Virus record (IMG/VR): IMGVR_UViG_3300032298_000424
Location: 5,202 to 69,201 of that record
Reading direction: 5' to 3' (one strand)
Source: a virus
Length of the DNA stretch: 64,000 bases
The notes below the pieces were generated by a model. That model saw nothing but the letters and a program-made list of their open reading frames with translations. It was not told the origin of the DNA and searched no databases. Position numbers and translations under genes: made by a program. Positions 4,742-29,237 of the stretch are shown here, piece after piece. Positions within the stretch are counted from its first letter, which is position 1, and each line of letters begins with the position of its first letter.

Positions 4742-5983
4742 ATGAAAAATTACATGAACTGGTTTACTGGTGTGGTCGAAGATCGTGATGATCCACAAGA
4801 ATTGGGTCGTGTGCGTGTAAGAATATTTGGTTTACATACAGACGACTTATCAAAGATTAGGACGAGTGATTTACCGTGGGCTCATACGATGATGCCTACG
4901 ACGTCTGCATCTATTTCTGGATTGGGATTTTCCCCAACTGGTTTAGTAGAGGGTTCGTGGGTCGTTGGTTTCTTTGCAGACGGTGAAAACTGTCAAGATC
5001 CTATCATCCTCGGTTCTATACATGGATATCCAACTCAAAATGTAAACGAACGCAATGCTTTTAAAGACTTTAACGGCAATTATCCTCGTTGGTATAATGA
5101 AACTGATGTAAGCAAGGTTGCGAGAAATGAATGGAAAGATCATGTATCCTATTATTCTCGCTATGCTGAGCAGGTTAAAGGGATTGAGAAAGCTACTAAA
5201 CCTTATATCCCAACGGTTGTAAGTGACTCCCCAGAAGAGTCCAGGGGCTCATGGGAAGAGCCAGAACCACGTCGTGGAGTTAGAGGAACATATCCATTCG
5301 TTCATACCTTTGAGAGTGAAACAGGCATCGTCCGTGAGATCGATGATTCTGAAAATAACTCGCGAATTGTTGAGCATCATCCTGCAGGTACATTCTACGA
5401 GATATTTCCAGATGGTGATAAAGTAACTAAAGTTTCTGGTGAAAATTATACGATAGTTGTTTATGATGACAATATCTTAATTCGTGGAACACAAAATATC
5501 ACGATCGAAGGTGATTCGCGAGTATTGGTAAAAGGTGATTATGTAATGGAAGTTATGGGTGACTATAACTTAAAAGTACACGGTAATCGTTATACTAAGA
5601 TATCACAAAATGACGCAATTGAAACTGTTGGTAACTTTAACTTAAACGTAAAAGAAGATTTCTTAACTCGCGTTGGTAAAAATCAAACGTTATTAATTGA
5701 TGTAAACAAGACTGAAACAATAGGTGGAAGTTCTTCATTAATGGTAACAGGAAAAGTAGATAACGTATTCTTAGACACTATGAGTACGTTCTCAAACGGT
5801 GCACAATCAGTATCAACCAATTCAACTCAACAGTTCTTATCTAAGAATGGTTTAGAGTTTGGTTCTGAAGCAAATTGGAACCTTAAGTGTAATGCAAACA
5901 TGACTATTGAAACAGTCGGAACTTTCTCAATTGAAAGCGGAGGCAATTTTAGTGTCGACGCTCCTAGAGTGGATTTAAACTAA
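4742..5983 (+). CDS. gp5: Baseplate central spike gp5 (OB fold + beta-helix; no lysozyme domain apparent)
   Basis: WFTGVVEDRDDP..LGRVRVRIFGLH, LPWA, GSWVVGFF, YPF..ESETG, HPAGTFYEI, VxG beta-helix repeats, C-terminal VDLN. Confidence 0.9.
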   Translation: MKNYMNWFTGVVEDRDDPQELGRVRVRIFGLHTDDLSKIRTSDLPWAHTMMPTTSASISGLGFSPTGLVEGSWVVGFFADGENCQDPIILGSIHGYPTQNVNERNAFKDFNGNYPRWYNETDVSKVARNEWKDHVSYYSRYAEQVKGIEKATKPYIPTVVSDSPEESRGSWEEPEPRRGVRGTYPFVHTFESETGIVREIDDSENNSRIVEHHPAGTFYEIFPDGDKVTKVSGENYTIVVYDDNILIRGTQNITIEGDSRVLVKGDYVMEVMGDYNLKVHGNRYTKISQNDAIETVGNFNLNVKEDFLTRVGKNQTLLIDVNKTETIGGSSSLMVTGKVDNVFLDTMSTFSNGAQSVSTNSTQQFLSKNGLEFGSEANWNLKCNANMTIETVGTFSIESGGNFSVDAPRVDLN

Positions 5984-15300: not shown

Positions 15301-18300
15301 AGTTACATATATCAGCTTACACATTATTCCCATCTCAAGGTTCTATCCAAATAGAAACCATCGATACTAAACGATATACGATGCGTGATATTGGTAAACT
15401 TGACAAGCGCATTGAAAACTTAGAATACTACACAGCATTATCATTATTAGAACAAGAAACTAAGTCATTGACAATTCAAGATGAATTGGGTCTTGATCGT
15501 TTCAAGAATGGTTTCATCGTTGATAGTTTCAAAGGTTCTGACCTTGGAGATACAGCATCAATAGATTATCGTTGTTCTATCGATATGTCATTACAAGAAT
15601 TACGACCATTCTACACAATGGATAATGTCAACTTATTAGAAACTAACCAATCGGATATTGCTCGTGATGCTGATGGATATGCATTGACTGGCGATATTAT
15701 CACATTACCATATACAGAACGAGAATTAATAAAACAACAATTTGCATCTCGTACAGAGAACGTAAACCCGTTTGCCATCTTTACATTCTTAGGAAGTATG
15801 ACTTTAAACCCTCCTTCAGATGAATGGTTTGAAGTTGATCGTAGACCAGATATTGTAAACAACATTGAAGGTAACTTTACAGCTGTACAAACTGCGCTTG
15901 AATCAACTGGTGCATTAGGTACAGTTTGGGGTGCATGGGAAACCAATTGGGTTGGTCAAACAAGAAATATAGATCGTTTAGTTGTAACACGCGGATTTGA
16001 TAGCAGAGACTATGGTCTTGGAGCTGCACGTTGGTCAGATCGTCGTACATTTACTCAAGCAGAATTACAAGCTATTGGTGGTGATGCTACTAGTTTTGGT
16101 AACGATGCTGCAGGTGCTCGCGTTCTTACATTCCAAACTCAAGCTACAACAGTTGGTCAATCACGTACAGGTATTCAAACATCTGTTACTCCCAGAATAG
16201 ATTACCAAGTACTTGAAGATAGAGTATTACAGTCAGCTCTGATTCCATATATCAGATCACGTGATTTACTCTTCGTTTGTAAAGGTTTAAAACCAAATAC
16301 GAAACTATTCCCGTTCTTTGATGATACTGATATATCTTTATTCGTAACTCCAGCAACAAAAGTTAATTTATCTTTAGTAACTGAAACTACGACTCAGTTT
16401 GATACTGAAACTAACGTTGGTGGTGCTGCAGAAGAATTTGCTAGACAAGTAGATGGTAAAGCAGAAGTTTCATACAATAAAGGTGACGTAGTTTTTGTTA
16501 AACAACGTGGCGCTACAACATATAACACTCAAGCTGTTTCTCCAGGAACTGGTATAGCTGTGTTAGTTGAAAGAAGCATTCAAGAAGAAGCTGAAGCCGT
16601 TTATTTGATGAACATCAAAGGTTCTTTCCAAAACGGAGATATCTTAAAAGGTTCTATTTCTGGAACAGAATATGAAGTTAATGGAAGCGTAGTAGTAGCT
16701 ACAGAAGCTGATGATATTATAACAAACTTTAATGGTTCAGTTGCTGGTGTGTTTAAGATCCCAAATACTCAGTCAATTCGTTTCAGGACTGGTATTAGAG
16801 AATTTAAACTGTCTGATAGTAATACAGGATCTTTAGATTTTACTACGCAAGGTCGTGGTCAATATCGTGCTCAAGGTATATTAGAGACTAAACAAAAAAC
16901 TATTAATGCTGTTAGAAATGCAGAGATTGCAACTCAACAAGTTTCTGAATCTCAAACAACTGAGGTTTATTCAGACGAGCGTTTAACTCGTGATAGCGGA
17001 TGGTATGATCCACTAGCACAAACATTCTTAGTACAATCTACTGGTGGTGCATTTATCACCAGCGTTGATATATTCTTTGCAACAAAAGATGTCGGGATTC
17101 CAGTAACTCTTCAAATTCGCGAAGTTGTAAACGGATATCCTGGCCAGCGCGTATTGCCGTTCTCAAGAGTTACACTAACTCCAGATAACATTAATATTAA
17201 TCCAAATACTGGAACAACTCCTACTACATTTAGATTTGAATCTCCTGTATTCTTACAAGATTTGACAGAATATTGTATAGTGTTATTATCAGATTCAAAT
17301 AACTATAGAGTTTGGATATCGCAACTTGGTGAAAAAGCTATTGGTACAGATCGTTTTATATCTGAACAACCTTATGCTGGTGTGTTATTCAAATCACAAA
17401 ATGCTTCTACATGGACAGCAAACCAAGAACAAGATTTGAAATTCACGATTCGTTCTGCCGTATTCGATATTACACAATATCCAGTAATCCAATTTAATAA
17501 TGAACCATTGCCTCCGATCATATTAGAAACTGATCCGTTCCAAACTAAGAGCGGGACTGATAAGGTGCGTGTATTTGCTAAAAATCATGCTATGCCAAAC
17601 AACTCATCAGTCATCATCTCTAACGTGGCTGCAGGAACATATAATGGTATAGTTACAACATCATCTACCGGATTAAATGGAACATTTACTATTGTAGATA
17701 GCGAGATCGATTCATTTGTAATCGATGTTAATGCTAATGCTACTAATAGTGGCTTTGTTGGTGGAGAAAATGTGATTGCAACGGTTAACGTTGGCTATGA
17801 TGCAGTAAACTTTATTGCTCAATCTCAAGTGTTCTCAGAAACTACATTAGCGTTTGGTATGACACCTATCAATGAGTCATACAGCGCAGCTTCTTCAGAA
17901 ACTTCTTTAATACCAAATGTGACTACATATTTCGATAATAAGAATATCATAGCTTCTCAAACAAATGAAAACTTATCTGCGTTATCTGGTAACAAGTCAT
18001 TGGTTGTAACTGCAAGATTAACATCTGAAAATGAAAACTTATCTCCGGTTATCGATACTTCTAGGATGTCATTGACAACAATCTCTAACAAGATTGACAC
18101 ATACACCTATTCAACTAAAAATAACGATGACTTAGATTACAAGACAGTATTGACTACTGCTGGAAACAATGTATCATACGCTGGAAGCACCATCAGTATT
18201 GCGAATACTGGAAGCTTAAGAAGTGATGCTACTGGTATAGCAGTTGGTAAGTATATTGAAATAACTGGAACAGGATCTTCAACTAATAACACGACTGATC

Positions 18301-18785
18301 CTATATTGGTAACTGGTGTTGCTTCAGATGGTGCTACAATTACTTGCGACCACACATTTGTAACACAGTCAGCGACCACTACTACTATCACTTTATTGGA
18401 TAACTATGTTAGTGAGATCGCTCCAACAGGTGGTTCTTCTGAATCTAAATATGTTACGCGCGTAGTTAACTTAGCAAATTCTTCAACTTTCTTGAAGATT
18501 ATGTTTGGTGCTAATATTCCAGCAGTAACCGGTTCAGATATAGAAGTTTATTATAAACTATTACCTGCTGGTTCTACTACAGATATCACCAAGTTTAACT
18601 TTGTGAGAGCTACTCCTACAGCCAACTTAATTAAGACATCTAATCGCAATACATTTACTGATGTTGCATATGAATTAGAAAACTTACCAGTGTTTGATGC
18701 TGTTGTGATTAAGATTGTATTTAAGACTGGTAATTCTGCTCAAGTACCTAGAGTTAAAGATCTAAGGGTTATAGCTTGTGCTTAA
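12384..18785 (+). CDS. Large virion structural protein, VrlC/DUF4815-like
   Basis: PYYDDYD..K.Y.RVLFRP, RELNQLQ, APGAHRY, LARRTFDESGHY, RYTMRDIGKL..RI..LEYYT.LSLLE, DRFKNGFIVD, DPLAQTF, SQNASTW motifs; follows gp8 as in many aquatic T4-like phages. Confidence 0.85.
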   Translation: MSLKIFSQAPYYDDYDEAKRYLRVLFRPAVSLQVRELNQLQTYLQTQVERVGLHLFKEGAMVIPGQSSVDTNITYIKIENETNGVDINDIANELIGSTITGQTSGVTAKVTTVTLEEPNEDNPLLTDAITLFVRYTSSGDDNETKTFVAGELLVADATTTTSLVERTVQIKSGTGVLGKGTIAAIQKGIYFVKGQFTLVTDQTLVISKYSNTPSYRIGLDVDENIVDSNDDSTLADNANGVPNQNAPGAHRYQIILTLTKLAPDSVLDDTFIELIRITDGILQSRVTETDYSILAKTLARRTFDESGHYTVSPFKVAVREHRNNDRGAWSGPGTTYQLGDIVTSGGNYFVALKSGLSGAVEPSTLFDATDPYQNLNDGIIDWNYTTNPSFNRGYLTPEKGGDEAAVAVAIEPGKAYVQGYEIEKIATEYVKVSKARTFDRISNDAIPVSYGNYIYVSNVLGLPDCSTFPQVDLYNRLTPASTPQAAGSGTKVGTARLRGWEFHSGTPGTSTGVYKAYIFDVKMESGYTFDRDVKQIFYDSGTTKTNIAADVYGKYTTLSGFITASATTITGSSGTAFTTQLKVGDYIRTINSTAAYEFRRVTAITDSDTLTIDSAFSGTVSGAVYSRVGTEINEPGGLPLLFPLAYSFIRNTRGGTGDNEQATTYTTTQRFDASTGASQTSLTFSVGSATSPTTSGSEFNPAATSTDYILVNRTDGTIESPSGITLQNNGVDVLISGLTASKAYSLLAPVRKAGSPAQEKKKTLVDNATADFTTLASVTPLTLSLAKADGYRIVTIRMAEDFTAASSDPATTTDITSWFTFDNGQRDTHYDVATITRRDGYPVPSGAVRVIFDYFDHSIGTAGDYFTVNSYSGEVPYNKIPYYISSTGVVALSDVMDFRPRIGDAGALFSGTGASQTEIPKIGFETSASYSYYLPRSDKLALNIDGTFFSVDGVASLSPEEPKDPNLGMLIAKLHISAYTLFPSQGSIQIETIDTKRYTMRDIGKLDKRIENLEYYTALSLLEQETKSLTIQDELGLDRFKNGFIVDSFKGSDLGDTASIDYRCSIDMSLQELRPFYTMDNVNLLETNQSDIARDADGYALTGDIITLPYTERELIKQQFASRTENVNPFAIFTFLGSMTLNPPSDEWFEVDRRPDIVNNIEGNFTAVQTALESTGALGTVWGAWETNWVGQTRNIDRLVVTRGFDSRDYGLGAARWSDRRTFTQAELQAIGGDATSFGNDAAGARVLTFQTQATTVGQSRTGIQTSVTPRIDYQVLEDRVLQSALIPYIRSRDLLFVCKGLKPNTKLFPFFDDTDISLFVTPATKVNLSLVTETTTQFDTETNVGGAAEEFARQVDGKAEVSYNKGDVVFVKQRGATTYNTQAVSPGTGIAVLVERSIQEEAEAVYLMNIKGSFQNGDILKGSISGTEYEVNGSVVVATEADDIITNFNGSVAGVFKIPNTQSIRFRTGIREFKLSDSNTGSLDFTTQGRGQYRAQGILETKQKTINAVRNAEIATQQVSESQTTEVYSDERLTRDSGWYDPLAQTFLVQSTGGAFITSVDIFFATKDVGIPVTLQIREVVNGYPGQRVLPFSRVTLTPDNININPNTGTTPTTFRFESPVFLQDLTEYCIVLLSDSNNYRVWISQLGEKAIGTDRFISEQPYAGVLFKSQNASTWTANQEQDLKFTIRSAVFDITQYPVIQFNNEPLPPIILETDPFQTKSGTDKVRVFAKNHAMPNNSSVIISNVAAGTYNGIVTTSSTGLNGTFTIVDSEIDSFVIDVNANATNSGFVGGENVIATVNVGYDAVNFIAQSQVFSETTLAFGMTPINESYSAASSETSLIPNVTTYFDNKNIIASQTNENLSALSGNKSLVVTARLTSENENLSPVIDTSRMSLTTISNKIDTYTYSTKNNDDLDYKTVLTTAGNNVSYAGSTISIANTGSLRSDATGIAVGKYIEITGTGSSTNNTTDPILVTGVASDGATITCDHTFVTQSATTTTITLLDNYVSEIAPTGGSSESKYVTRVVNLANSSTFLKIMFGANIPAVTGSDIEVYYKLLPAGSTTDITKFNFVRATPTANLIKTSNRNTFTDVAYELENLPVFDAVVIKIVFKTGNSAQVPRVKDLRVIACA

Positions 18786-19027: not shown

Positions 19028-20125
19028 ATGGCAGCTATTAACGTAAATCTAACCGACACCTTTAACGGGTGGAGACTAAAAACTAATCAGATTGGTGACT
19101 TTGTAGGAGACACTGCTGGTTTATTAACTGATGCAACTAATGTTGTTGCAGCTATTAATGAAGTAAGATCTGCAGCTCCTCTCGATGGTGTTATCTCTAC
19201 TGATGGTAATGAATTTAAAGTAAACGTAGATTCAGCAGATACATTTGAACTTGTATTAACAGCCGCTGGTAATTTATCAGTTACCGGTGAAATGACTGCA
19301 ACAAAGTTTAATGGTCCATTAACAGGCAATGTAACAGGCAATGTAACAGGTGCTGTTACAGGCAATGCATCAACTGCCACAACATTACAAAATGCTCGCA
19401 CAATCAATGGTGCTTCTTTTAACGGCTCTGCTAATATAACATTCAATACAGATGCAACTGCAGAAGGTAGTACTAATCTTTATTTCACGAATGCGCGTGC
19501 TAGATCAGCAATAAGTATTGCCGCTACAGGCGGTAATATTACATATAACTCAACGAGTGGTGAATTTAGTTTAACTAATGCTAATGTGGTTGCAGCTCTT
19601 GGTTATACACCTTGGCATTCAGGCAATGATGGAGCAAGCTCTGGTCTTGATGCTGACTTATTAGACGGTATGAATAGCGCTACAGCTGCAACTAATTCTA
19701 CTATCGCAGCACGTGATAGTTCAGGCAATTTAACAGCAAATGTGTTTAACGGTGTTGCAACATCAGCTAGATACGCTGACTTGGCAGAAAAATATACAAC
19801 AGACAAAGAATATCCAGTTGGAACTGTCATGGTGATTTCATTAAGTGCTGATTCAGAATGTACAGCTTCTTATTCTCCAGGTCAAATCGCAGTTGGTGTA
19901 ATCTCTGAGAAGCCAGCATTCTTGATGAATAAAGATGCTGATGGTCAAGCGATTGCTCTTCGTGGTCGAGTTCCAGTTAGAGTGATTGGACCAATTACAA
20001 AAGGCCAAACTGTAATTGCTAGTGTTGATGGCAAAGCAATTTATGGTGTATTAAACCCTGTTGCAATAGCGCTTGAAACAAATCAAGAATTCAAAGAAAA
20101 ATTAGTTGAGTGCGTGATATTATAA
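19028..20125 (+). CDS. Tail fibre/spike protein with C-terminal intramolecular-chaperone (peptidase G2-like autocleavage) domain
   Basis: N-terminal TDTFNGWRLKTN, TGNVTGNVTG repeats, LDADLLDG, C-terminal YADLAEKY...GVIS..PAFLMN..GRVPVRV. Confidence 0.75.
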   Translation: MAAINVNLTDTFNGWRLKTNQIGDFVGDTAGLLTDATNVVAAINEVRSAAPLDGVISTDGNEFKVNVDSADTFELVLTAAGNLSVTGEMTATKFNGPLTGNVTGNVTGAVTGNASTATTLQNARTINGASFNGSANITFNTDATAEGSTNLYFTNARARSAISIAATGGNITYNSTSGEFSLTNANVVAALGYTPWHSGNDGASSGLDADLLDGMNSATAATNSTIAARDSSGNLTANVFNGVATSARYADLAEKYTTDKEYPVGTVMVISLSADSECTASYSPGQIAVGVISEKPAFLMNKDADGQAIALRGRVPVRVIGPITKGQTVIASVDGKAIYGVLNPVAIALETNQEFKEKLVECVIL

Positions 20126-20553
20126 TGCATGAAGAAGTATTCTTTCAATTTGTAAAAAATCACGATAACTTATCACACTTAAGTTATACTGAAAATAGAC
20201 GCGAAGGTCAACAGATCATCGGTTTAAAGGTTGCTGGTATTCCAGGCGAAGATGATGATATTTTTGTTCCATACGTTGCTGAATTATTAAAAGAAGAAGA
20301 TACTACTATCATCGATCCAAACTATGATGCTGTTTATGAAAGCTTTACAGGTATCGATCATAACTTAGATTCAGTAGAATATATCAAAACCTTGGTAGAA
20401 TCTATGACAACACGTGAAGAGATATCTGTATTTTGTGTTAACAATATAGTTAAAAAATTAATCGACTGTAATATTGATGCAAGTAAAGTTTATGTAAGAG
20501 TTAAACCCCACTGGCCAACCGACTGGTGTGATCAGGTAATCGAGGTTCAATAA
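20125..20553 (+). CDS. Hypothetical acidic protein
   Basis: ORF; ATG at 20125 overlaps the upstream TAA (track start 20110 is GTG). Confidence 0.6.
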   Translation: MHEEVFFQFVKNHDNLSHLSYTENRREGQQIIGLKVAGIPGEDDDIFVPYVAELLKEEDTTIIDPNYDAVYESFTGIDHNLDSVEYIKTLVESMTTREEISVFCVNNIVKKLIDCNIDASKVYVRVKPHWPTDWCDQVIEVQ

Positions 20554-20939
20554 TGGCAACCACAGAACGCAATCCTAAAGCAAATATATTTCCAGATAAT
20601 AGTCCTATAACTACATTAAGAAATAATATTGTAGCTGGAAACAACATTACTGCTAGCGATATCAATTCTTTGACTAACTTAATAATGGCCTGGAAGGGTC
20701 ATTATCACACGTATGATGATGCATGGCAATTAGCTACTTATGGTAACAACGGTGATCGTGGCAATTACTATGAAGATAAAAACACTGGGCCTGCCGTTCG
20801 CACAATTACTGAAGTTTTTGTTCCCCCTGCACAAGTCTCATCAGGTACTGATATATATGCAACTCACCACAATGAAATGAGATTTTTTATCTCTCTCGTT
20901 GGAAATCATGTCCATAGAATTGATGACCGCACTAGTTAA
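20553..20939 (+). CDS. Small protein with two G..I.A...N......HxH..DD repeats; homologous to the leader of the 23134 peptide
   Basis: IVAGNNITASDINSLTNLIMAWKGHYHTYDD and VSSGTDIYATHHNEMRFFISLVGNHVHRIDD. Confidence 0.7.
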   Translation: MATTERNPKANIFPDNSPITTLRNNIVAGNNITASDINSLTNLIMAWKGHYHTYDDAWQLATYGNNGDRGNYYEDKNTGPAVRTITEVFVPPAQVSSGTDIYATHHNEMRFFISLVGNHVHRIDDRTS

Positions 20940-22162
20940 CGTAGTAAACTTTTATCTTCTACGATTAGACTTACTTTCTCTTTTAGTTCATTAAAATATT
21001 TTTCCCCAGCATTTAGAGGTATCAAGCCTCTAGCAATAGCATCATACTTAAATGTTGTCAGTTGAAGATCATGTTTAAGAGCAACTGATGCAAACCTAAC
21101 GCCTACATCTCGGCGCCATTTCCTAGATTTCATATCAAAAGCAAAGAAGTTACCAACTTGTCTAGTTGAGGTTATATCGTGCTCACTAATAAGCCAATCT
21201 AAAAATTCTTCAACTAAGCGTTGATTATCATAGTCGTTTTCTTCATATAGGTTTAATGCTTCATTAGCAGCAGCAAGTCCAATCACCGATCCGCTATTAG
21301 TCCATCCATGTACTATCCATTCGTTTTCTAATTGATTCCAAATTTGATTATGAATCGCAACAGCAGATAACGGTACATATCCAGCAGTAATACTCTTAGA
21401 TAGTATTATAAATGTTGGTTCTATTGGTAATGCATAGTAATGAAATGGTGAACCAGTCTTAAAAAATCCGGATGCAGATTCGTCTAATATTAGGTGAATA
21501 TCGTTAGCTACACAAAAATAGTTTAATTCATCCCAGAATTGATATGAACATTGCAATACACCAGACAAATAAGTGAAAGGTTCTATAACAATAGAACTAA
21601 TCTTGTCTACATCCAATTTTGCCAATTCGTTTAATGTTGCTTGCCCATCGTTTCCAAATGGTGATAATAATTTGATATTCTCTGGCCAATCGGGTAGGTG
21701 TTGTCCTAATCCACCCAAATCACTAATAGCTCCTGTTAACCATGTAGATCCATGGTAAGATCCTTTGAATGTGATGATCTTCGTCCTATTGCTTTTTTGT
21801 TTTAGACGAGTCATATAAGACAATCTTAAAGCAGACTCTACAGCATCGGAGCCAGAACTACCAAAGAAAAATTTCTGATGGTGTGAAAAATAAGCCGCTA
21901 ATCTTTTTGAGTATGTTACACCAATCTCAGCTAACATACTATTATTATGTCTACTGAACGGTAAAGTTTGGGAGGCATTATAAATAGCATTGGATATTGA
22001 ATGTTGAGAGTAACCCAGGTTGCAGTTAATATTGCCGCACTGGGCATCTAGGATCCGCTGACCAGACTTTGCAATCAGGTGAAAGCCGTCAGCGGAACTG
22101 ATGATCAATGGTTCTAAGTCCGAGTGATTGGTGTAAGGAAGAACATAGTTATAATTAAACAT
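20936..22162 (-). CDS. Class III PLP-dependent aminotransferase (BioA/omega-amine family), inverted relative to neighbours
   Basis: LGY, SGSDAVESAL, SYHGST, IVIEP, LILDE..SGF..TG, SKSITAGYVPLS (PLP lysine), HGWT.SG; likely start MFNYN at 22162. Confidence 0.9.
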   Translation of the reverse strand: MFNYNYVLPYTNHSDLEPLIISSADGFHLIAKSGQRILDAQCGNINCNLGYSQHSISNAIYNASQTLPFSRHNNSMLAEIGVTYSKRLAAYFSHHQKFFFGSSGSDAVESALRLSYMTRLKQKSNRTKIITFKGSYHGSTWLTGAISDLGGLGQHLPDWPENIKLLSPFGNDGQATLNELAKLDVDKISSIVIEPFTYLSGVLQCSYQFWDELNYFCVANDIHLILDESASGFFKTGSPFHYYALPIEPTFIILSKSITAGYVPLSAVAIHNQIWNQLENEWIVHGWTNSGSVIGLAAANEALNLYEENDYDNQRLVEEFLDWLISEHDITSTRQVGNFFAFDMKSRKWRRDVGVRFASVALKHDLQLTTFKYDAIARGLIPLNAGEKYFNELKEKVSLIVEDKSLLR

Positions 22163-22171
22163 GAGGATATA

Positions 22172-23131
22172 ATGAAACCTATAGTATTTTTTCAATGCGG
22201 TGAAACTCAAAGTACACCATGGCTAGATGCTATCCAAACTTGGAATTCAGATTCAGATATAAAAGGATTTTGGATAAATCCAAAGCATCCGCAATCATAT
22301 CTATATCACTTTGAAAAGAAAGAAAACAAGATAGTTTTCAATAAAAATGTTGGTTATGTAGAAGGATCTGATTTTGTAATTACTAAACAATTCGTGCAAC
22401 CTGGCATGGATATGAATCGATCAGTAACAAAGGGTATCAATATAGATTTTATCATTGAATGGTTAAATGCCAACGATGGTAAAGCTTTAGGATTCGGAAC
22501 ATTTTTAAGTAGCGGATCACATGTCGATATTATCCAAAACAGTGTATACTATACTAGAGATCCTTGGATGGGTGGTCATATATTAGATATTGAAAAAAAT
22601 GAATTCATATCTAGCGATGATAACAATAAATTGAGCACTGTTACTTGGTTTTATGCATATAAAGTAAAAAATTTACCTATCTATCTTTTAGTATTTAATC
22701 CGTCAACGACTACGATGGGAGATAATGTAGAATTCGAAACCGAAACTAATAGATATAGAATAATGGATCCTCACATGGGATACATGTCTACTCAATTTTT
22801 AAAACCAAAGATGAGTAAAAATGCATATCCATTAGAAGACAAATGGTATGTCGTAAAGGGTGAAGAGTTTAGTTTTGAAGTTGGTGCTTTAAGTACAATT
22901 AAACTTGGTTTAGGAGAAATCATAGATCCAAGCTTAATTAAGGTTTTAAGTGATTTAAATTTAGAACATTTGGGTGATAATAAATATAAAGCTAGATTTA
23001 AGAATGGTCAACAGTCTGCTTATATTAGTATTAGAATGAACACAGGTAATACGATGGATTGGACATTTATCAATAGTGGCAATCGGTTAGTATATAATAT
23101 TAAGATTAGCAAACATTACGAAGAGGTTTAA
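22172..23131 (+). CDS. Hypothetical protein immediately upstream of the Cys-rich peptide
   Basis: ATG at 22172 with GAGGA RBS; no motif recognised. Confidence 0.7.
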   Translation: MKPIVFFQCGETQSTPWLDAIQTWNSDSDIKGFWINPKHPQSYLYHFEKKENKIVFNKNVGYVEGSDFVITKQFVQPGMDMNRSVTKGINIDFIIEWLNANDGKALGFGTFLSSGSHVDIIQNSVYYTRDPWMGGHILDIEKNEFISSDDNNKLSTVTWFYAYKVKNLPIYLLVFNPSTTTMGDNVEFETETNRYRIMDPHMGYMSTQFLKPKMSKNAYPLEDKWYVVKGEEFSFEVGALSTIKLGLGEIIDPSLIKVLSDLNLEHLGDNKYKARFKNGQQSAYISIRMNTGNTMDWTFINSGNRLVYNIKISKHYEEV

Positions 23132-23133
23132 AA

Positions 23134-23340
23134 ATGGGTATAGAAGATGTAAGCACGTTTACTACTGGATCTACTATTCCAGCAGAAAAGGCCGCAGCAG
23201 ATACCGTTTCTGCTGATACATTTAGACAAATGCTGGATGTGCTAGAATCATTAGCATCTCACAGCCACATATTTTATGATGATTATAACACTGTCTGCGA
23301 ATGTCAGTGTGCTTGTGCTTGTGGCCGTGGGACTGTATGA
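23134..23340 (+). CDS. Putative RiPP-like precursor peptide with C-terminal CECQCACAC (CxCxCxCxC) core
   Basis: 68 aa, GAGG RBS, five Cys at alternate positions, ATGA overlap with the following radical SAM gene. Confidence 0.8.
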   Translation: MGIEDVSTFTTGSTIPAEKAAADTVSADTFRQMLDVLESLASHSHIFYDDYNTVCECQCACACGRGTV

Positions 23341-25058
23341 AAACTATTTGGTTAAAAACCGAAGCACAAAAACAAAGGCAGCAAGATCATAAAGCATCAG
23401 TAATAGAAACTGATGGACAGTTCCAATTCCTTAGCGAGAAAATTATCACTCCAAAGGGATTGGATAAAATTAATAAACTAATCTCAGTTGTTCCAAAGGA
23501 AAATGAGACTGTACTTAGTATAAGCAATACGAAATATCTGTTTAGTGAATTGAAGCAGATGAATCTTATATTAACTAATGCATGTAATTTGTCATGTTCT
23601 TATTGTTATGAGCAGCATAAGAAAGACTTTGGTAGATTTACCAATGAGTCTCTCTTGACTGCATATCGATTCTTAAAAGATGCAAATAATAACCAAAAGA
23701 AAGTATTTCAATTTTTTGGCGGCGAGCCTTTAATCCACAAAGATATCATCTTAGATTTCCTTCGTAAGAATAAAGAAGAATTACAAATTAACTCACGCGG
23801 TGAAACCAATACAGTTATCGGTATCGTCACTAATGGGTTATTACTGACTCAGCCTTTAGTCGATGAATATTTCTCGCACGACTTTACATATATGCTTATC
23901 TCGCTAGATACAGATAAATCTGAGGTCGATCATAGAGAGATCGGTCAAGATAAGATAAACAAGCTCATGGATCAGATCCAAACAATCCCAGAAGAGCCAA
24001 AATTTCAAAAGCGAGTCACTGTACGTTGTACTCTTGCCAGAGAGAATGCACCTTATTTTGCAGAGTTTGTTGATAACTTATACGAGCGAGGAATTAGACG
24101 TTTAGTAGTTCATCCGCTCATATTAGATTCTGCGAGAGGATTCATTCAATGGACTGAGCAAGAATGGAATACTTTGCATAATGACATATTAAACTCTCTA
24201 GATAAGTATGAAGACTTACAAATACATTTTAGTGAAGGTGTTGGTAAGAAAGGCGAAGAGAACTGTATGATTGGTTCTGATATGATAGCTATTGATGCCA
24301 GTGGAGATTTTTCAGGTTGTTATTTTTTCACAAATCAAAAAGGCGGTTCAACTGCCGATACTATATTAGGCAATGTTTTTAATAATACGATCTATATCGA
24401 TCGTTATAAGCACTTCCAAAAAGAATATGCTAAGATGTTTGAAGAGGAAGAACAATGTAAGACATGTGACTATAAGAATGCATGCTATCAGTGTCCAGCA
24501 GGTAACTTAGATACTGGCACACGTATGTTTAGACCAGATGATATGTGTCAAAAGATCGTTAAGCTTTATGTAGATTTGCAAGAAGATATTGCTAAGAAAC
24601 AATTTAAGATTAAGTATGATACATTAGTTCGCGCATTACATACTGAAGGATATGAACTAACATTCCTTAAAGCTATCAGCTATATGTTATTTTATTATGT
24701 TTATCAATATCATCCATCACTTGATAAAGTGCATAATGATCTCGTTAATAAATTTAAAAATCCTCAAAGGTTGTTGGGTTTTTGGTTAGAGATCATGGAA
24801 GGTAAACATAAAGAACTAGATGAAGTTAAACCAGAAGAATTCCTCGATACAATACAAGAATTGATTGGTGATAAACAAGTAAGCATCGATGACTTTTATT
24901 ATCAAATTTTGGCTAAAAGAAACATGCCAACTGGTAGAATTGTTAAAGTACAAAATCAAATGCAAGAAGTATTCTTCTTAGCATTACTCCACGTATTGAT
25001 ATTGGCGTCCGATGATCGGGCTTTAGATGATGCAATCAGCTATAAACTTCTACAATAA
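23337..25058 (+). CDS. Radical SAM/SPASM maturase 1 with C-terminal helical extension
   Basis: CNLSCSYC, FFGGEPL, VTNG, SPASM C..G..IDASG...C and CKTC..KNACYQC...C; likely start MKTIW at 23337. Confidence 0.92.
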   Translation: MKTIWLKTEAQKQRQQDHKASVIETDGQFQFLSEKIITPKGLDKINKLISVVPKENETVLSISNTKYLFSELKQMNLILTNACNLSCSYCYEQHKKDFGRFTNESLLTAYRFLKDANNNQKKVFQFFGGEPLIHKDIILDFLRKNKEELQINSRGETNTVIGIVTNGLLLTQPLVDEYFSHDFTYMLISLDTDKSEVDHREIGQDKINKLMDQIQTIPEEPKFQKRVTVRCTLARENAPYFAEFVDNLYERGIRRLVVHPLILDSARGFIQWTEQEWNTLHNDILNSLDKYEDLQIHFSEGVGKKGEENCMIGSDMIAIDASGDFSGCYFFTNQKGGSTADTILGNVFNNTIYIDRYKHFQKEYAKMFEEEEQCKTCDYKNACYQCPAGNLDTGTRMFRPDDMCQKIVKLYVDLQEDIAKKQFKIKYDTLVRALHTEGYELTFLKAISYMLFYYVYQYHPSLDKVHNDLVNKFKNPQRLLGFWLEIMEGKHKELDEVKPEEFLDTIQELIGDKQVSIDDFYYQILAKRNMPTGRIVKVQNQMQEVFFLALLHVLILASDDRALDDAISYKLLQ

Positions 25059-26145
25059 ACGAGATAAGCCTCTTAATAATGTTAAGATGCTTATCATTTA
25101 CCTTGGGAATAAGTGTAACTTTGATTGTGTATATTGTGATCGAGGTTATATTGAATCGCTTGGCGGTCAATCGTTAAACGGAAACACAACTCAAGAGTTA
25201 CAAGATTTTTTCTTGTGGGCAGAAAAACAAGAAAATAAAGTTGAATGGGTATCTTTCCATGGTGGTGAGCCATTGTTATTCGCAAAACGCATGGAACAAT
25301 GTCTTGAATGGTTGATGCCAATCGCTGAACGCAATGGTTGGAAAGTTGGAATGACCACCAATGGTTCTCTAGTAAAAGAAAATCAGCATATATTTGAGAA
25401 GTATTCTGGCAAACTTGGTGCAACTATAAGCTATGACTTCATGTTCCAAGAAGAGAATCGTGATAGATTGAATGTAGTAGAGATGGCTGAAGTATTAAAT
25501 CAGCATTGTTTTGATTGGAAGTGGCAATATGTTCTGCCTATTGAAGATAGACGTGCATTCTCATTTGAAAATGTACAATCTATAGTAGACACGTGTTATA
25601 GCACTGGATGTAAGACTGTAAATGTCATTCCTCTAAGACATCATCGCGGAGAAGACAAATTTGATGTTATAATAGATCGAATTAATTTACCGCAATTCTT
25701 TGGTGCATTTCTCGAGTTTATCCAAATATTGTATATAAAAAAGTTAAATATTTTTATCGATGGTAATTATGATAAGATTGACAAAGCATATTTTGCAGAA
25801 CATAATAAGCTAATCTTATCTCCCGACGGATATCTGTATCCAGAATTCGATTTCTTAGAATATAAAGTTGAGAATACCCGCATAGGCAAATGGCAAGATG
25901 GAGTAGAAGTTTGGCAACCCATCGGAGATCAAAGTAGAATACATGAATCGTGTGATTCATGCGAACAAAAAGCAAGTTGCGGTTTAAAATATCTTTATAA
26001 GTTGTTCGACAAACAACCGCAAGGAAGTTGTAAAGATTTCTATAAATTTGTTGATGTAGCTATAATGCATAATGCTGAATTGAAAAAGGAAAAAAGTTTA
26101 TTCCAGAGGATCGGTATAGATAATCAATTCAAGGTGAATAAATGA
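25027..26145 (+). CDS. Radical SAM protein 2 with partial SPASM domain
   Basis: CNFDCVYC, FHGGEPL, TTNG, LSPDGYLYP, CDSC..KASC..C. Confidence 0.9.
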   Translation: MMQSAINFYNKRDKPLNNVKMLIIYLGNKCNFDCVYCDRGYIESLGGQSLNGNTTQELQDFFLWAEKQENKVEWVSFHGGEPLLFAKRMEQCLEWLMPIAERNGWKVGMTTNGSLVKENQHIFEKYSGKLGATISYDFMFQEENRDRLNVVEMAEVLNQHCFDWKWQYVLPIEDRRAFSFENVQSIVDTCYSTGCKTVNVIPLRHHRGEDKFDVIIDRINLPQFFGAFLEFIQILYIKKLNIFIDGNYDKIDKAYFAEHNKLILSPDGYLYPEFDFLEYKVENTRIGKWQDGVEVWQPIGDQSRIHESCDSCEQKASCGLKYLYKLFDKQPQGSCKDFYKFVDVAIMHNAELKKEKSLFQRIGIDNQFKVNK

Positions 26146-27200
26146 ATAGAGACGATTTCGACAATTATCCAGATCTAGCACAATATTGGTTAAGGGAAGA
26201 TGCACTACGTTCATTAGACTATGATGTATATTTTAGTGTTGGTACAAGATACTATTGTGATGCTGGTTGCAAAGTATGTTATATTAAAGATCACTTAAAA
26301 GAAACGAAAGATTTATCTAATTTTGGAAATGATTTAGATAAACACCAAGAAGAATGGTTTAAGTTTTTTAAATATTTCGGTGTAATTAGAACTAATGACG
26401 ATCTATACTATCTAAAGCATAATCATCAAAAAGAGTATGAGTGGTATCAAAAATATGGTCATATGTTTGAATTATGTATTACTGATAATGCTATATTTAG
26501 GACACTAGAATTAGATGACATTAATTTAGCCAGTATTGCAGACATCTCAATAAGTACAGATTTTTTGAATCATGTTGGTGTAGAAAAAGTATTGGTTGCA
26601 TGTAAACAGCTTTATGATAAATTTGGCGTTAGAAAGATAAAGTATATTGACTGCGGTCACCCAGAACTATTTAAAGATATTATAGAATGGGCTAATAAAT
26701 TAGATTTACATAATTGTGTACATCATGATTTTAGAACTAATCACAGAGATATACTACACCATGCTTGGGCAGAATACCAAAATACGTGGGTAATTAATGA
26801 TGATAAAGGTTTGATGCACATCTATAGAGAATCAGTACATCTTTACTATGATAGATTTTTCTTTTCATCAGATGATGCTACCGACTTAACGATTGAACCG
26901 TTTTATCAATTTGACAATAGTATAGACATAAAAGCTTTTATGGTTAAGATGTTACAAGGTAAACAAACCTTATATAATCTTTGGAAAAATAGACCCATTG
27001 AAAAAAGATTTAGAGATTACTATACGACAACCATGCAATATATTATCAATGAAAATTTTAATTTTATCCCTAGAATTATGATGTCTCCAAAGGCAAAGTT
27101 TTTTTACAAATTACTAGAAGAAGGATGGATCCAAACTCCATACGGTCTTCTTAAGTCATCTGAATCAGATAAGATTATACCAATTATAGGCACAAAATGA
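26142..27200 (+). CDS. Divergent radical SAM-like protein 3
   Basis: CDAGCKVC (CxxxCxxC) near the N-terminus but no GGEP motif; ATGA overlap with upstream gene. Confidence 0.6.
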   Translation: MNRDDFDNYPDLAQYWLREDALRSLDYDVYFSVGTRYYCDAGCKVCYIKDHLKETKDLSNFGNDLDKHQEEWFKFFKYFGVIRTNDDLYYLKHNHQKEYEWYQKYGHMFELCITDNAIFRTLELDDINLASIADISISTDFLNHVGVEKVLVACKQLYDKFGVRKIKYIDCGHPELFKDIIEWANKLDLHNCVHHDFRTNHRDILHHAWAEYQNTWVINDDKGLMHIYRESVHLYYDRFFFSSDDATDLTIEPFYQFDNSIDIKAFMVKMLQGKQTLYNLWKNRPIEKRFRDYYTTTMQYIINENFNFIPRIMMSPKAKFFYKLLEEGWIQTPYGLLKSSESDKIIPIIGTK

Positions 27201-28528
27201 GCTTTAGTAAATTTCAAACACAATCTGGTAAAGTATTCTATTATAGAAACTTAGACAATAGTCTTCATAATGATAAGGGTGAGATTTTATCTTTACCTCC
27301 TAAAGAAGGTTATGAATTCTTTGAAAATGTACAACATAATTTTGGTGTGCAACATAAGACGAATAAACCAACTGCATTACGCATTCTTCTAGGACATGCG
27401 TGTAATTACTCATGCACATATTGCATGCAAAAAGATATTGGCAATCCTGATGAGAAACCACAAAATTTTTGGTTAGAATCATTTGTAGAATCTATTAACA
27501 AATATCTTGACTTAGAAAACTTAGAACGCATTGAACTTTGGGGTGGAGAACCATTCCTTTATTGGAATGATATGGTTCCGATCATGAAATTACTTGATGG
27601 TCCAGGTCGACACTTCTATATCTCTACAAATGCATCACCACTAAGACAAAAGCACGTAGATTTCTTCAAGACTTTAACTGCTAGTGTCATGATGGGTATT
27701 TCACACGATGGTCCAGGTCATGAGCGTCTTCGCGGAGAAGATATCTTTGATAAGAAGAGTGTTGTTGATGTTATCAAGCAATTTGATGATATGAGTCCTA
27801 AGGTACAATATAGTTTTAATTCTGTTGTCTCTGCTACAAACTTTGATATGTTTGAGATTAATGATTATTTTAAAGCAGTTAAAGATAAGTTGGGTTTGAA
27901 GCATGCGAGGATCAGTTACATTCCTGCACGAGTTTATGACGATACAGATTCTAAAAACTCAGCTGATCATGTTATTAAAGGTGATGATCTACCCAAGTTT
28001 AAGAAGATAGTCAATGACTATATTAAAGCTGCTATCAAGCAATTGAGAGAGGGCGGAGATCGCATATTAAACTCTAATGTTATCGATGGAGATGCTGGAG
28101 TTCTTAAGTATGCCGCTTTAACTCGACATCAAATACCTATTACGATGACGTCGAATTGTGGAGCTGATGCAGCTGACATCCTTTCTATGGATATTATGGG
28201 ACAAGTTAGATTATGCCCACACACCTCTGAGAAATTTAAAGGAGGTCATATCAAAGATATTAAAAGTGTTAAGATCATACAATTAGATTTAGATAGAAAA
28301 CACGAGCATTGTTATACATGTCCAGTTAGAAGACTTTGTAAGTCTAGTTGTCCTATTAAATTTCCCGATGAAGTGTTTATGCATAATTGTAGAGTAGAAA
28401 AGATTTGGTATTCTGCTATTCAACAAAACGCATTCTCATTATTGTTTAATGAACCCATAGAATTATTAGAAACTGGATTAAATGAAATTAGACCTAAAGA
28501 AGATACAAGAGCACCGATCTCAGCTTGA
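27197..28528 (+). CDS. Radical SAM/SPASM maturase 4
   Basis: CNYSCTYC, LWGGEPF, STN, ISHDG, SPASM CGA..DIMG.VRLC and CYTCPVRRLCKSSCP...C. Confidence 0.92.
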   Translation: MSFSKFQTQSGKVFYYRNLDNSLHNDKGEILSLPPKEGYEFFENVQHNFGVQHKTNKPTALRILLGHACNYSCTYCMQKDIGNPDEKPQNFWLESFVESINKYLDLENLERIELWGGEPFLYWNDMVPIMKLLDGPGRHFYISTNASPLRQKHVDFFKTLTASVMMGISHDGPGHERLRGEDIFDKKSVVDVIKQFDDMSPKVQYSFNSVVSATNFDMFEINDYFKAVKDKLGLKHARISYIPARVYDDTDSKNSADHVIKGDDLPKFKKIVNDYIKAAIKQLREGGDRILNSNVIDGDAGVLKYAALTRHQIPITMTSNCGADAADILSMDIMGQVRLCPHTSEKFKGGHIKDIKSVKIIQLDLDRKHEHCYTCPVRRLCKSSCPIKFPDEVFMHNCRVEKIWYSAIQQNAFSLLFNEPIELLETGLNEIRPKEDTRAPISA

Positions 28529-29237
28529 GAATCATTCTCTTCTTGTAACTAATACTATACAATCTATTGAAGATCTTAGAATCTTCATGAAATATCATGT
28601 CTTTGCGGTATGGGATTTCATGAGTCTATTAAAGACTATACAGCACAATGTGGTGCCAACTAGTAACATATGGTTACCAACTCCTGGCACAAGGTCTGAT
28701 ATAGCTAGGATGATTAATGAGATAGTCCTCTGTGAGGAATCTGATATATCTCCCGATGGTAAATCATCTATAAGTCATTTCGACCTATACTTACAGTCAA
28801 TGATGGAAGTAGGTGCTGATACAATGCCTGTTAGAAATTACCTGGATGCGGTTAGCAAGTTTAATTCACACATAGACTGTGAGTATGTTCCAAAGGCTTC
28901 TATGGATTTCGTAAAAACCACATTTGATGCTATAAAAATGGGTCCTCATTGTGCTGCAGCTTCATTTTGTTACGGTAGAGAATCAGTAATCCCTGCAATG
29001 TTTAAAAGATTACTTAAACAGATTGATATATCAGAAACTGATGCTCCTAAGTTTCACTATTACTTAGAAAGACACATCCAGGTTGATGGAGAAAGTCATG
29101 GACCAATGTCAGAACATTTGGTTAATTATTTTTGTAAGGATGATCCATTCCTTATTCATGAGGCCGAACAAGCGGCGATTACAGCTATCAAAGCTAGAAT
29201 TAAACTATTTGATGACATAGAATCGCAACTCATATAA
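28482..29237 (+). CDS. DUF3050 heme-oxygenase-like (HDO) metalloenzyme
   Basis: FM..HVFAVWDFMSLLK, INEIVL.EESD, SHFDLYL, GRE.VIP.MF, YYLERHI.VDG..HG motifs. Confidence 0.85.
   Translation: MKLDLKKIQEHRSQLENHSLLVTNTIQSIEDLRIFMKYHVFAVWDFMSLLKTIQHNVVPTSNIWLPTPGTRSDIARMINEIVLCEESDISPDGKSSISHFDLYLQSMMEVGADTMPVRNYLDAVSKFNSHIDCEYVPKASMDFVKTTFDAIKMGPHCAAASFCYGRESVIPAMFKRLLKQIDISETDAPKFHYYLERHIQVDGESHGPMSEHLVNYFCKDDPFLIHEAEQAAITAIKARIKLFDDIESQLI

Follow-up and report, generated by a model that had tools for sequence, protein, structure and literature searches.

A small Cys-rich open reading frame that stands in front of radical-SAM genes, close to phage tail-fibre genes, raises the question of whether its product is a leader peptide of the classical kind, released after modification, or one chain of a tail-associated assembly. 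The locus lies in a 64,000-nucleotide stretch of an IMG/VR virus record (IMGVR_UViG_3300032298_000424, positions 5,202 to 69,201), hereafter called the window. A sequence-only reading had claimed that the leader of the 68-aa Cys-tailed peptide is a virion-type HxH module, that the same module occurs in both halves of a neighbouring 128-aa protein, and that the two products dock together into a trimeric fibre. The coordinates and the three segments quoted for this claim proved correct when rechecked in the ORFs of the window, and the features concerned are as follows.

19028..20125, plus strand: 365-aa fibre-like protein (tail-fibre PHROGs); heads the operon into the 147-aa and 128-aa genes
20110..20553, plus strand: 147-aa protein, its gene placed between those of the fibre-like and partner proteins (ORF; conserved-locus comparison)
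20553..20939, plus strand: 128-aa partner protein, two helix+HxHxxxD units, zero Cys (ORF call and family)
20628..20720, plus strand: partner unit 1, residues 26-56, helix and then H50-Y-H52-T-Y-D-D56
20835..20927, plus strand: partner unit 2, residues 95-125, helix and then H119-V-H121-R-I-D-D125
20936..22210, minus strand: class III aminotransferase (PF00202 at 5e-45)
22172..23131, plus strand: 319-aa conserved cassette protein, no family match; start set by alignment with relatives (listed ORF start 22124)
23134..23340, plus strand: 68-aa Cys-tailed peptide with variable N-terminus, one helix+HxHxxxD unit and invariant tail; GAGG upstream
23188..23283, plus strand: peptide unit, residues 19-50, helix (M33, L37, L40) and then H43-S-H45-I-F-Y-D49-D50
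23296..23337, plus strand: peptide Cys tail C55-E-C-Q-C-A-C-A-C63-G-R-G-T-V, presumed radical-SAM substrate
23337..25058, plus strand: radical SAM/SPASM enzyme 1 (Pfam Radical_SAM 8.2e-17, and SPASM)
25027..26145, plus strand: radical SAM enzyme 2 (family matches; present across related loci)
26142..27200, plus strand: 352-aa CX3CX2C protein (C-DAG-C-KV-C; phrog_36229 at 3.1e-39)
27197..28528, plus strand: radical SAM/SPASM enzyme 4 (family matches; present across related loci)
28482..29237, plus strand: DUF3050 protein of the haem-oxygenase-like, iron-containing redox enzyme superfamily (PF11251 at 9.5e-77)

In the window the fibre, 147-aa and 128-aa genes are arranged so that each end overlaps the next start, the stop of the 147-aa ORF and the ATG of the partner sharing one base. 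The window shows no enrichment of the T4 late-promoter word TATAAATA (9 found versus 9.9 expected), and a copy at 21979, upstream of the 319-aa gene, is suggestive only. The 319-aa gene lies beside the peptide gene in 22 of 33 related loci, as far as BLAST detects it, and its product has zero Pfam, NCBIfam or PHROG matches and ESM Atlas scores of at most 0.83. Its AF2 model (pLDDT 81) ends in an Ig-like sandwich of about 115 residues (approximately 200-319), the best fold match giving Z 6.7 and rmsd 3.2 over 78 aligned residues (Foldseek, VIA-align); this arrangement is common and assigns no function. The DUF3050 gene was found in 17 of the 33 loci, and its RP12 homologue has been termed MgoB-like (PMC5468394). 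The aminotransferase gene, present in nine of the 33, is a clade-specific accessory, and its matches to BioA and to the daptide aminotransferase are weak, both under cut-off.

The three units at issue are IVAGNN...HYHTYDD (partner residues 26-56), VSSGTD...HVHRIDD (partner residues 95-125) and KAAADT...HSHIFYDD (peptide residues 19-50, followed by CECQCACACGRGTV). Their HxH motifs do stand in one register, as had been proposed, but the invariant signature is HxHxxxD, with the Asp six residues past the first His (H50/H52/D56 and H119/H121/D125 in the partner, H43/H45/D49 in the peptide); the 'DD' of the peptide comes one residue later than in both partner units. Chance or compositional likeness between short helical segments containing His might explain such a resemblance, and the pairwise scores inside the window are indeed weak: in Smith-Waterman comparisons against 2000 shuffles, the N unit versus the C unit gave z 3.3 (score reached by 22 shuffles), the N unit versus the leader z 3.8 (9 shuffles) and the C unit versus the leader z 2.7 (44 shuffles). 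The comparison with shuffled controls that had been suggested is therefore marginal within the window alone, but it goes far beyond chance with relatives included, since no shuffle out of 2000 reached the score of the window leader against the 125-aa protein of phage RP12 (z 9.0) or that of the RP12 leader against the same protein (z 8.5). Family profiles compared with hhalign gave Prob 95% and E 3.4e-8 for the leader versus the C unit, Prob 88% and E 3.3e-6 for the N versus the C unit, and Prob 38-48% and E 2-3e-4 for the leader versus the N unit, with HxH falling on HxH in all three alignments. In addition, HxHxxxD occurs three times in the 56 ORFs of the window (20,582 residues), exactly in these three units, versus 0.35 expected by composition, and it is retained without exception in the 39 diverse partners and 39 peptides compared. 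Shuffles with relatives, profile-profile E-values and the invariant motif together refute a chance resemblance, which we regard as extremely improbable. Judged by these comparisons, the peptide leader and the two partner halves are homologous units, and the proposed common module is upheld.

The unit number is constant as well. The partner family comprises 66 clusters, and a profile search of 1.84 billion representatives returned 214 of its members; among 39 diverse family members H50, H52, D56, G64, H119, H121 and D125 are invariant. Two units were found in 142 of the best 150 of these 214 matches, one in six, none in two and three in none. The unit-less pair consists of a 48-aa fragment and P0302 (650 aa, '5 stretches'), which was rejected as spurious, being a Gly/Asp/Asn-rich repeat protein without any HxH. 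Inter-unit spacing varies between 56 and 326 residues, which makes the linker a tolerated display loop. Some partner relatives carry extra beta-propeller, beta-sandwich or Hint domains. The AF2 monomer of the partner (pLDDT 72, moderate) has helices at 17-27, 34-47 and 103-117. As for the peptide, its 88 clusters all possess one HxHxxxD unit, and 86 of them have five Cys. Residues H43, H45, D49, D50, Y51, C55, C57, C59, C61, R65 and G66 are invariant in 39 diverse sequences, and the tail is nearly so, a single 19-residue tail being shared by 37 of the 88 clusters, while the N-terminus varies. A weak search found no longer fused forms of the peptide and no natural peptide-partner fusion.

The window and all 33 related phage loci each contain one partner gene and one peptide gene (one locus, L021, is truncated where its contig stops, and another, L031, is split), and four radical-SAM genes follow the pair wherever the contig reaches. 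These loci span T4-like phages and the PhiKZ-related Ralstonia phage RP12, the known carriers being 32 IMG/VR loci together with RP12 and RP31. Starting from the partner, the peptide was seen at 17 of 24 loci, and the other seven contigs end 0.06-2.3 kb past the partner gene, too early to count as absences. Two pattern scans of 185,579 prokaryotic species genomes revealed no true copy of the cassette, and the peptide pattern had zero matches there. Two MAG contigs matching the degenerate DNA pattern were discarded; they hold the 9-residue pattern without any cassette gene and are thus chance matches. The cassette looks phage-restricted.

Structure prediction of the peptide with the 128-aa protein, a check that had been proposed, was favorable: the 1:1 model reached an ipSAE of 0.61 (0.60-0.65 over the runs) versus 0.00 for the best control. 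Of 80 solved complexes 58 score this high, and of 110 mismatched pairs 2 do, counts that are only approximate here because custom alignments were used. The runs share at least 82% of their contacts, with a partner pLDDT of at least 66. In the model the peptide helix is contacted by the core of unit 1 (L40, I44, W47) and that of unit 2 (M109, I113, V116). Six of the 25 lowest-error pairs link strictly homologous positions (peptide 33/37/40 with 40/44/47 and 109/113/116), and 11 further helix-helix pairs among the 25 deviate by -1 to +5 residues, a sign of parallel packing. The predicted interface covers partner residues 50, 52 and 116-125 and peptide residues 44-53, the tail (54-68) lying outside. 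PDB sequences searched with the partner and peptide family profiles gave 0 matches at E <= 10, and with no such relative the predictor is unlikely to owe its high score to a complex already solved. Such programs may bring homologous amphipathic helices together irrespective of any contact in vivo. The model supports 1:1 binding with parallel, in-register helices. Docking of the peptide with the 128-aa protein, through three homologous helices, was thus borne out in the model, but docking into a trimeric fibre lacks a sequence basis, because the four fibre-like or giant structural proteins of the window contain no HxH. The two units of the partner and the one of the peptide already form a complete three-unit set by themselves.

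We therefore put forward, as a reading whose probability we place slightly below even, that the peptide and the 128-aa protein join as the two chains of a single small assembly. Three helices, a pair supplied by the partner units and the third by the peptide unit, would pack parallel and in register as a bundle. Their HxH turns would then meet at one level and form a six-histidine cage together with three Asp, a geometry suggested by the contact lists, and the cage would probably hold a metal ion. The bundle would hold the peptide in place and leave its invariant CxCxCxCxC-RG tail, at the C-terminus, projecting freely, to be modified by the four co-encoded radical-SAM proteins, the DUF3050 protein and clade-specific extras. 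The product would stay a protein-like two-chain particle, not a released antibiotic, and might serve the tail-fibre or baseplate apparatus as a component or as an assembly factor.

Known HxH cages are the natural comparison. In the P2 gpV apex and in fibres three HxH copies form an Fe cage (10.1101/2023.02.25.529910; PMC11705849). As in P2 gpV and the T4 gp37 needle, HxH is strictly conserved here, three copies are expected on one axis and the setting is that of phage tail genes. In contrast, the copies are predicted to be divided between two unlike chains (2+1), the motif stands behind an alpha-helix and has an invariant Asp at +6, and no sequence or fold relation to solved or predicted fibres or spikes was found. 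The characterised cages that the first of these sources describes are all made of three identical chains (10.1101/2023.02.25.529910), and the account of T4 gp37 has successive cages along one axis (PMC11705849). On this pattern the partner could form a homotrimer with two stacked His cages and the peptide another with one cage and a 15-Cys tip, the heterodimer model reflecting nothing but shared ancestry; the extra domains of some partner relatives would also fit, since fibre proteins bear such domains. However, a single three-unit set accounts more simply for the unvarying 2+1 count and for the one-to-one pairing of the genes, and the heteromeric model matched homologous layers at 0.61 versus 0.00 for the controls. 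We consider two separate homotrimers quite improbable.

Whether the two-chain assembly belongs to the virion is a separate matter. Baseplate-wedge genes lie upstream of the cassette and fibre genes downstream, the 365-aa fibre-like gene is conserved upstream, 8 of 10 flanking ORFs in distant jumbo-phage loci match tail-fibre or virion PHROGs, and RP12 ORF072 and ORF073, just upstream of its cassette, are fibre-repeat proteins. The label 'virion-type' thus suits the neighbourhood, where distant lineages have fibre genes on the flanks of the cassette, but the unit itself was seen in no fibre. Homology to virion proteins was not borne out: the profile search finds only the two-unit family and the peptide, and no fibre, collar or spike protein was matched in the 1.84 billion representatives, in PDB sequences or among BFVD folds. 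Likewise, it was not seen outside the partner and the peptide in all six-frame ORFs of the window and the 33 loci or in the best 150 of the 214 matches. The partner model matched nothing in the PDB at E <= 0.001 (Foldseek), and in BFVD only its RP12 homologue A0A1L7N0Q6 (E 1.5e-3, TM 0.57), no virion protein. For RP31, Supplementary Table S3 of the phage report gives 32 virion proteins (PMC5468394). The setting of the cassette suggests a possible virion role.

The enzymes bring in a different possibility, raised as an alternative in the sequence-only reading too, in which the helix+HxH unit is the recognition sequence for one or more maturases. Here the 128-aa protein is a PqqD-like chaperone, a decoy or regulator, or else another substrate whose modification falls on HxHxxxD or close to it, and the modified peptide acts free, in or on the host, and not as a virion part. 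The organisation is RiPP-like, the small ORF adjoining and being translationally coupled to a radical SAM/SPASM gene (the ATG of enzyme 1 overlaps the TGA of the peptide gene, ATGA), and the nearest enzyme families are peptide maturases. PapB, the ranthipeptide maturase, is the top-scoring NCBIfam family for enzymes 1 and 2 (116.5 bits for enzyme 1, cut-off 340), followed by CXXX-repeat (79.2 versus 350) and SCIFF (74.8 versus 425) as other best maturase scores; the QhpD model gave 73.1 and 49.7 bits with enzymes 1 and 4, which at a cut-off of 453 are not members. None of the radical-SAM enzymes of the cassette reaches any curated family cut-off, and with scores so far below them the chemistry is a guess, thioether-type being suggested by the nearest relatives of the two proteins, out of four, that have SPASM domains. 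The 352-aa CX3CX2C protein is likely a divergent fourth radical-SAM protein, by its motif, which RP12 ORF078 shares; it does not match the Pfam Radical_SAM model, and its gene is present in all loci reaching that far. In enzyme 1 about 80 residues precede the Fe-S motif, a stretch that commonly houses recognition domains, and the tailoring genes vary between clades (aminotransferase, ketosynthase, desaturase), as in natural-product clusters. Leaders can also descend from stand-alone proteins, as in NHLP and Nif11, although neither the peptide nor the 128-aa protein matched any NCBIfam or Pfam family at E <= 0.1, the models of these leaders included.

Compared with SPASM thioether RiPPs (ranthipeptides/PapB, SCIFF, CXXX-repeat), the cassette shares the small Cys-rich ORF adjoining SPASM maturases, but it has four radical-SAM proteins per peptide and an invariant core, and it is phage-only and set in a fibre module. 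Pfam, NCBIfam and PHROG scans found no protease and no exporter or transporter among its genes, and the N-termini of enzymes 1 and 4 had no Pfam match to a PqqD/RRE domain at E <= 10, RREs being often too divergent for Pfam. A nearly invariant tail, a variable N-terminus and the lack of protease and exporter are, as far as the sequences go, the opposite of a typical secreted RiPP. PqqD is a separate small protein that binds the precursor leader and presents it to the radical-SAM enzyme; the partner, in contrast, is a duplicated leader copy, not a winged-helix RRE, and has no PqqD match. Moreover, Cys is absent from 107 of the 131 short partner-family members, which therefore cannot be thioether donors, a decoy would not demand a constant two units, and in the high-scoring complex model the leader helix lies on the partner. 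With the phage restriction and the constant fibre neighbourhood also against it, we find the classical leader rather unlikely. A precedent for the two-chain particle, in proposed function only, is QhpC, the small Cys protein (gamma subunit of quinohemoprotein amine dehydrogenase) that is cross-linked by the SPASM enzyme QhpD and kept as a complex subunit; the peptide would similarly be retained, not released, but the cassette contains no dehydrogenase subunits.

At its widest, the two-chain assembly would mean that phages of at least two distant lineages build an enzymatically made tail part, in which a pseudo-trimer with a heteromeric His cage shows a Cys ladder welded to a rigid knot by four radical-SAM enzymes, in some clades maybe decorated further by aminotransferase or ketosynthase/desaturase chemistry, and employed, on fibre or baseplate, to adsorb to the host or attack its envelope. 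We hold this full picture to be unlikely. If true, it would provide the first example both of a RiPP-type virion component, cross-linked by enzymes, and of a His cage built from non-identical chains; open-access PMC papers and bioRxiv preprints, subscription journals being outside the scope, yielded no report combining fibre HxH cages with radical-SAM maturation of a Cys peptide. The peptide and partner are small, soluble-looking and easily co-expressed, so the key experiments are cheap. Finally, should the 2+1 assembly hold, it would show how a structural oligomerisation unit can be copied to give a RiPP leader, or a leader to give such a unit. It would then also offer a way into a widespread phage-only cassette, known from 88 peptide clusters and 214 partner representatives of T4-like and PhiKZ-related phages, and enzymatically cross-linked virion parts would become a testable question.

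The two halves of the 128-aa protein of the window (hereafter the partner) and the leader of the 68-aa peptide encoded downstream of it share a homologous unit. The sequence-only reading had drawn attention to this resemblance, and the three segments that it quoted were found at their positions in the window. Within the window the pairwise scores are marginal against shuffled controls (z 3.3, 3.8 and 2.7, with 22, 9 and 44 of 2000 shuffles as high, respectively), whereas no shuffle out of 2000 scored as high when the window leader (z 9.0) or the RP12 leader (z 8.5) was compared with the 125-aa protein of Ralstonia phage RP12, so that the case for homology rests on related sequences. Profile-profile comparison aligned the leader with the C-terminal unit (Prob 95%, E 3.4e-8), the N- with the C-terminal unit of the partner (Prob 88%, E 3.3e-6) and the leader with the N-terminal unit (Prob 38-48%, E 2-3e-4), each time with HxH on HxH. 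Among 39 diverse sequences per family, the residues that never vary are H50, H52, D56, G64, H119, H121 and D125 in the partner and H43, H45, D49, D50, Y51, C55, C57, C59, C61, R65 and G66 in the peptide; what the units have in common is therefore a helix with HxHxxxD after it. This motif occurs three times in the window ORFs (20,582 residues), always at these units, against 0.35 expected. The observation of a shared unit is thus confirmed by the cross-genome scores, the profile E-values and the invariant motif, while chance similarity, to which we would assign a negligible probability, is refuted.

The 69-kb IMG/VR source record has a completeness estimate of 42%, and the window encodes T4-type baseplate-wedge and tail-fibre genes. 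The cassette and its surroundings are organized as follows.

Genes of the cassette region (window coordinates)
19028-20125, 365-aa fibre-like protein
20110-20553, 147-aa protein, function unassigned
20553-20939, 128-aa protein (partner)
20936-22210, minus strand, class III aminotransferase
22124/22172-23131, 319-aa protein, function unassigned
23134-23340, 68-aa peptide
23337-25058, radical SAM/SPASM enzyme (enzyme 1)
25027-26145, second radical-SAM enzyme
26142-27200, 352-aa protein with CX3CX2C
27197-28528, third radical SAM/SPASM enzyme
28482-29237, DUF3050 protein

Three joins overlap: the fibre and 147-aa genes by 16 bases, the 147-aa stop and the partner start by one base, and the peptide and enzyme 1 genes, whose stop and start lie within ATGA (23337-23340). 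By gene arrangement, translational coupling extends through the cassette. The CX3CX2C of the 352-aa protein (26142-27200) is kept in RP12 ORF078 and missed by the Pfam Radical_SAM model; with this protein counted in, the cassette encodes four proteins of the radical-SAM type; the strictly invariant Cys of the peptide likewise number four (C55, C57, C59, C61). The T4 late-promoter word TATAAATA occurs at nine sites in the window (e.g., 10857, 21979, 29233 and 31970), every one on the plus strand and several within short intergenic gaps, with a total count not above chance. Directly upstream of the fibre gene lies a 2133-aa protein with DUF4815 (phrog_358; 12384-18785), which is kept in most related loci.

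A pattern scan of IMG/VR yielded 32 loci. Together with RP12, one peptide gene with one partner-family ORF just upstream was present in 33/33 loci, a count that includes L021, cut by a contig end, and L031, in which the partner is split over two frames. Four radical-SAM-type genes come next in each locus, as far as the contig extends. The other genes are less constant: DUF3050 was found in 17/33 loci, the 319-aa protein was BLAST-detectable in 22/33 and the aminotransferase was present in 9/33. The slot between the partner and 319-aa genes holds different tailoring enzymes by clade, namely the class III aminotransferase in the window clade (9/33 loci; window 20936-22210), a beta-ketoacyl synthase and a fatty-acid desaturase in its place in L016 (5448-7467), and a ketosynthase in its place in L052 (6416-7609). 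These variable enzymes hint at extra decoration, perhaps of a lipid type. The split partner gene of L031 (5176-5492) is intact in the near-identical L032 (4195-4533); a frameshift or else a mistake in assembly would account for the split.

Among 50,697 records of cultured phages, the only matches were the Ralstonia jumbo phages RP12 and RP31, where the peptide gave a tblastn match (E 3e-8) at an unannotated spot. RP12 carries the same cassette, including the 125-aa protein with two HxH units; its peptide homologue is a 65-aa ORF ending NCNCNCACTRGSL (L001 11989-12186, corresponding to about 82888-83085 of AP017924.1). The GenBank records of both phages have no annotated feature for the homologue, which would therefore be undetectable in published virion proteomics. 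The virion proteome published for RP31 comprises 32 proteins (PMC5468394). Two patterns retrieved no true copy from prokaryotes (185,579 species, one genome each).

In the protein databases, the partner family comprises 66 clusters and the peptide family 88. A HMMER pass over 1.84 billion representatives recovered 214 partner-family proteins at E <= 0.001; among the 150 of these that were listed, HxHxxx[DEN] occurs exactly twice in 142, once in six and not at all in two, and neither a third motif nor the Cys ladder was seen in any. The two motif-less proteins are a 48-aa fragment and P0302, which was dismissed as spurious. The motifs lie 56 to 326 residues apart (median 69), and 107/131 short members are Cys-free. 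Longer relatives carry a beta-propeller between the units or terminal beta-rich or Hint domains, and the two-unit core behaves as a scaffold displaying other modules. Extra domains were noted in L028 (8614-9969), P0266, P0259, P0251, P0264 and P0240; P0251 has the propeller inserted between its two units, in P0266 a beta-rich domain is followed by a Hint (intein-like) one (Hom_end_hint, 37.9 bits), and some relatives have N- or C-terminal beta-sandwich-like domains. As for the peptide, one motif is present in 88/88 clusters and five Cys in 86/88, one 19-residue tail is common to 37/88, and the first ~25 residues are variable. A weak search found no longer fused form.

In a single complex prediction of partner and peptide (39-row alignment per chain), the pair passed with an ipSAE of 0.61 (runs 0.60, 0.61 and 0.65; best control 0.00); the benchmark level is reached by 58/80 solved complexes and 2/110 mismatched pairs, and is a rough guide since custom alignments were used. 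Contact agreement between runs was at least 82% and partner pLDDT at least 66. The model supports partner-peptide binding. Memory of a solved complex is an unlikely cause of the pass, because the PDB contains no sequence relatives of either family. The homology alignment places peptide residue r opposite r+7 and r+76 of the partner. Six of the 25 lowest-error pairs fall at exactly homologous positions (peptide 33 with partner 40 and 109; 37 with 44 and 113; 40 with 47 and 116) and 11 further helix-helix pairs deviate from these positions by no more than -1 to +5 residues, the pattern expected when three helices run parallel and in register. The confident interface takes in residues 50, 52 and 116-125 of the partner and 44-53 of the peptide, with the peptide tail (54-68) outside it; an extra partner helix (16-23) contacts the peptide too. 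The partner monomer was folded with moderate confidence (pLDDT 72; helices 17-27, 34-47 and 103-117), and a fold search with this model matched solely the RP12 homologue.

It has also been proposed that the unit is of virion type. The context is consistent with a link between the cassette and fibres: translational coupling links the partner gene to the fibre gene in the window, baseplate and fibre genes bracket the cassette in the T4-like clade, 8/10 flanking ORFs in distant jumbo-phage loci match tail-fibre or virion PHROGs, and two fibre-repeat proteins lie directly upstream of the cassette in RP12. However, searches with both family profiles (filters off, six-frame ORFs of at least 30 aa, window and 33 loci) returned only the two families at E <= 1, as they did against the full genome record, and profile, PDB-sequence and fold searches did not detect the unit in fibre, collar or spike proteins. 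Since, furthermore, no HxH occurs in the window's fibre-like proteins, the label stands as an analogy of motif and geometry and not as demonstrated homology, and docking of the peptide into a fibre is unsupported.

Three HxH copies enclosing Fe on an axis are an established design, described for the P2 gpV apex (10.1101/2023.02.25.529910) and for phage fibres (PMC11705849). The unit count here, constant across the families, differs in that one chain contributes two units and its neighbour a single one. Given this count and the three-copy design, the simplest reading would be a 2+1 pseudo-trimer of partner and peptide. That each protein instead forms its own homotrimer, mini-fibre-like, would be closer to the fibre design and is improbable beside the predicted interface between the two chains. 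The 2+1 pseudo-trimer would close one six-His cage, possibly aided by the three invariant Asp, and the Cys ladder would protrude six residues further on.

Among known families, the enzymes come closest to the thioether-forming peptide maturases PapB, CXXX-repeat, SCIFF and QhpD. As every enzyme scores far below the curated family cut-offs, we can only infer that the Cys ladder may be welded by thioethers. The unit, lying in the leader, may alternatively be the maturase recognition sequence, with the partner a protein of leader origin that serves as chaperone, decoy or second substrate; we consider this somewhat unlikely. No comparable cassette was found in open-access PMC papers and bioRxiv preprints (subscription journals being outside the scope), and in the RP12 paper (PMC5468394) the cassette enzymes appear as isolated annotations only. 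Finally, no protease or exporter was found among the cassette genes and, considered with the lack of a recognition domain recognizable by Pfam in the N-termini of enzyme 1 and the 27197-28528 enzyme, the invariant 'core' and the restriction to phages, this points to a product that is retained and protein-like rather than a secreted RiPP.
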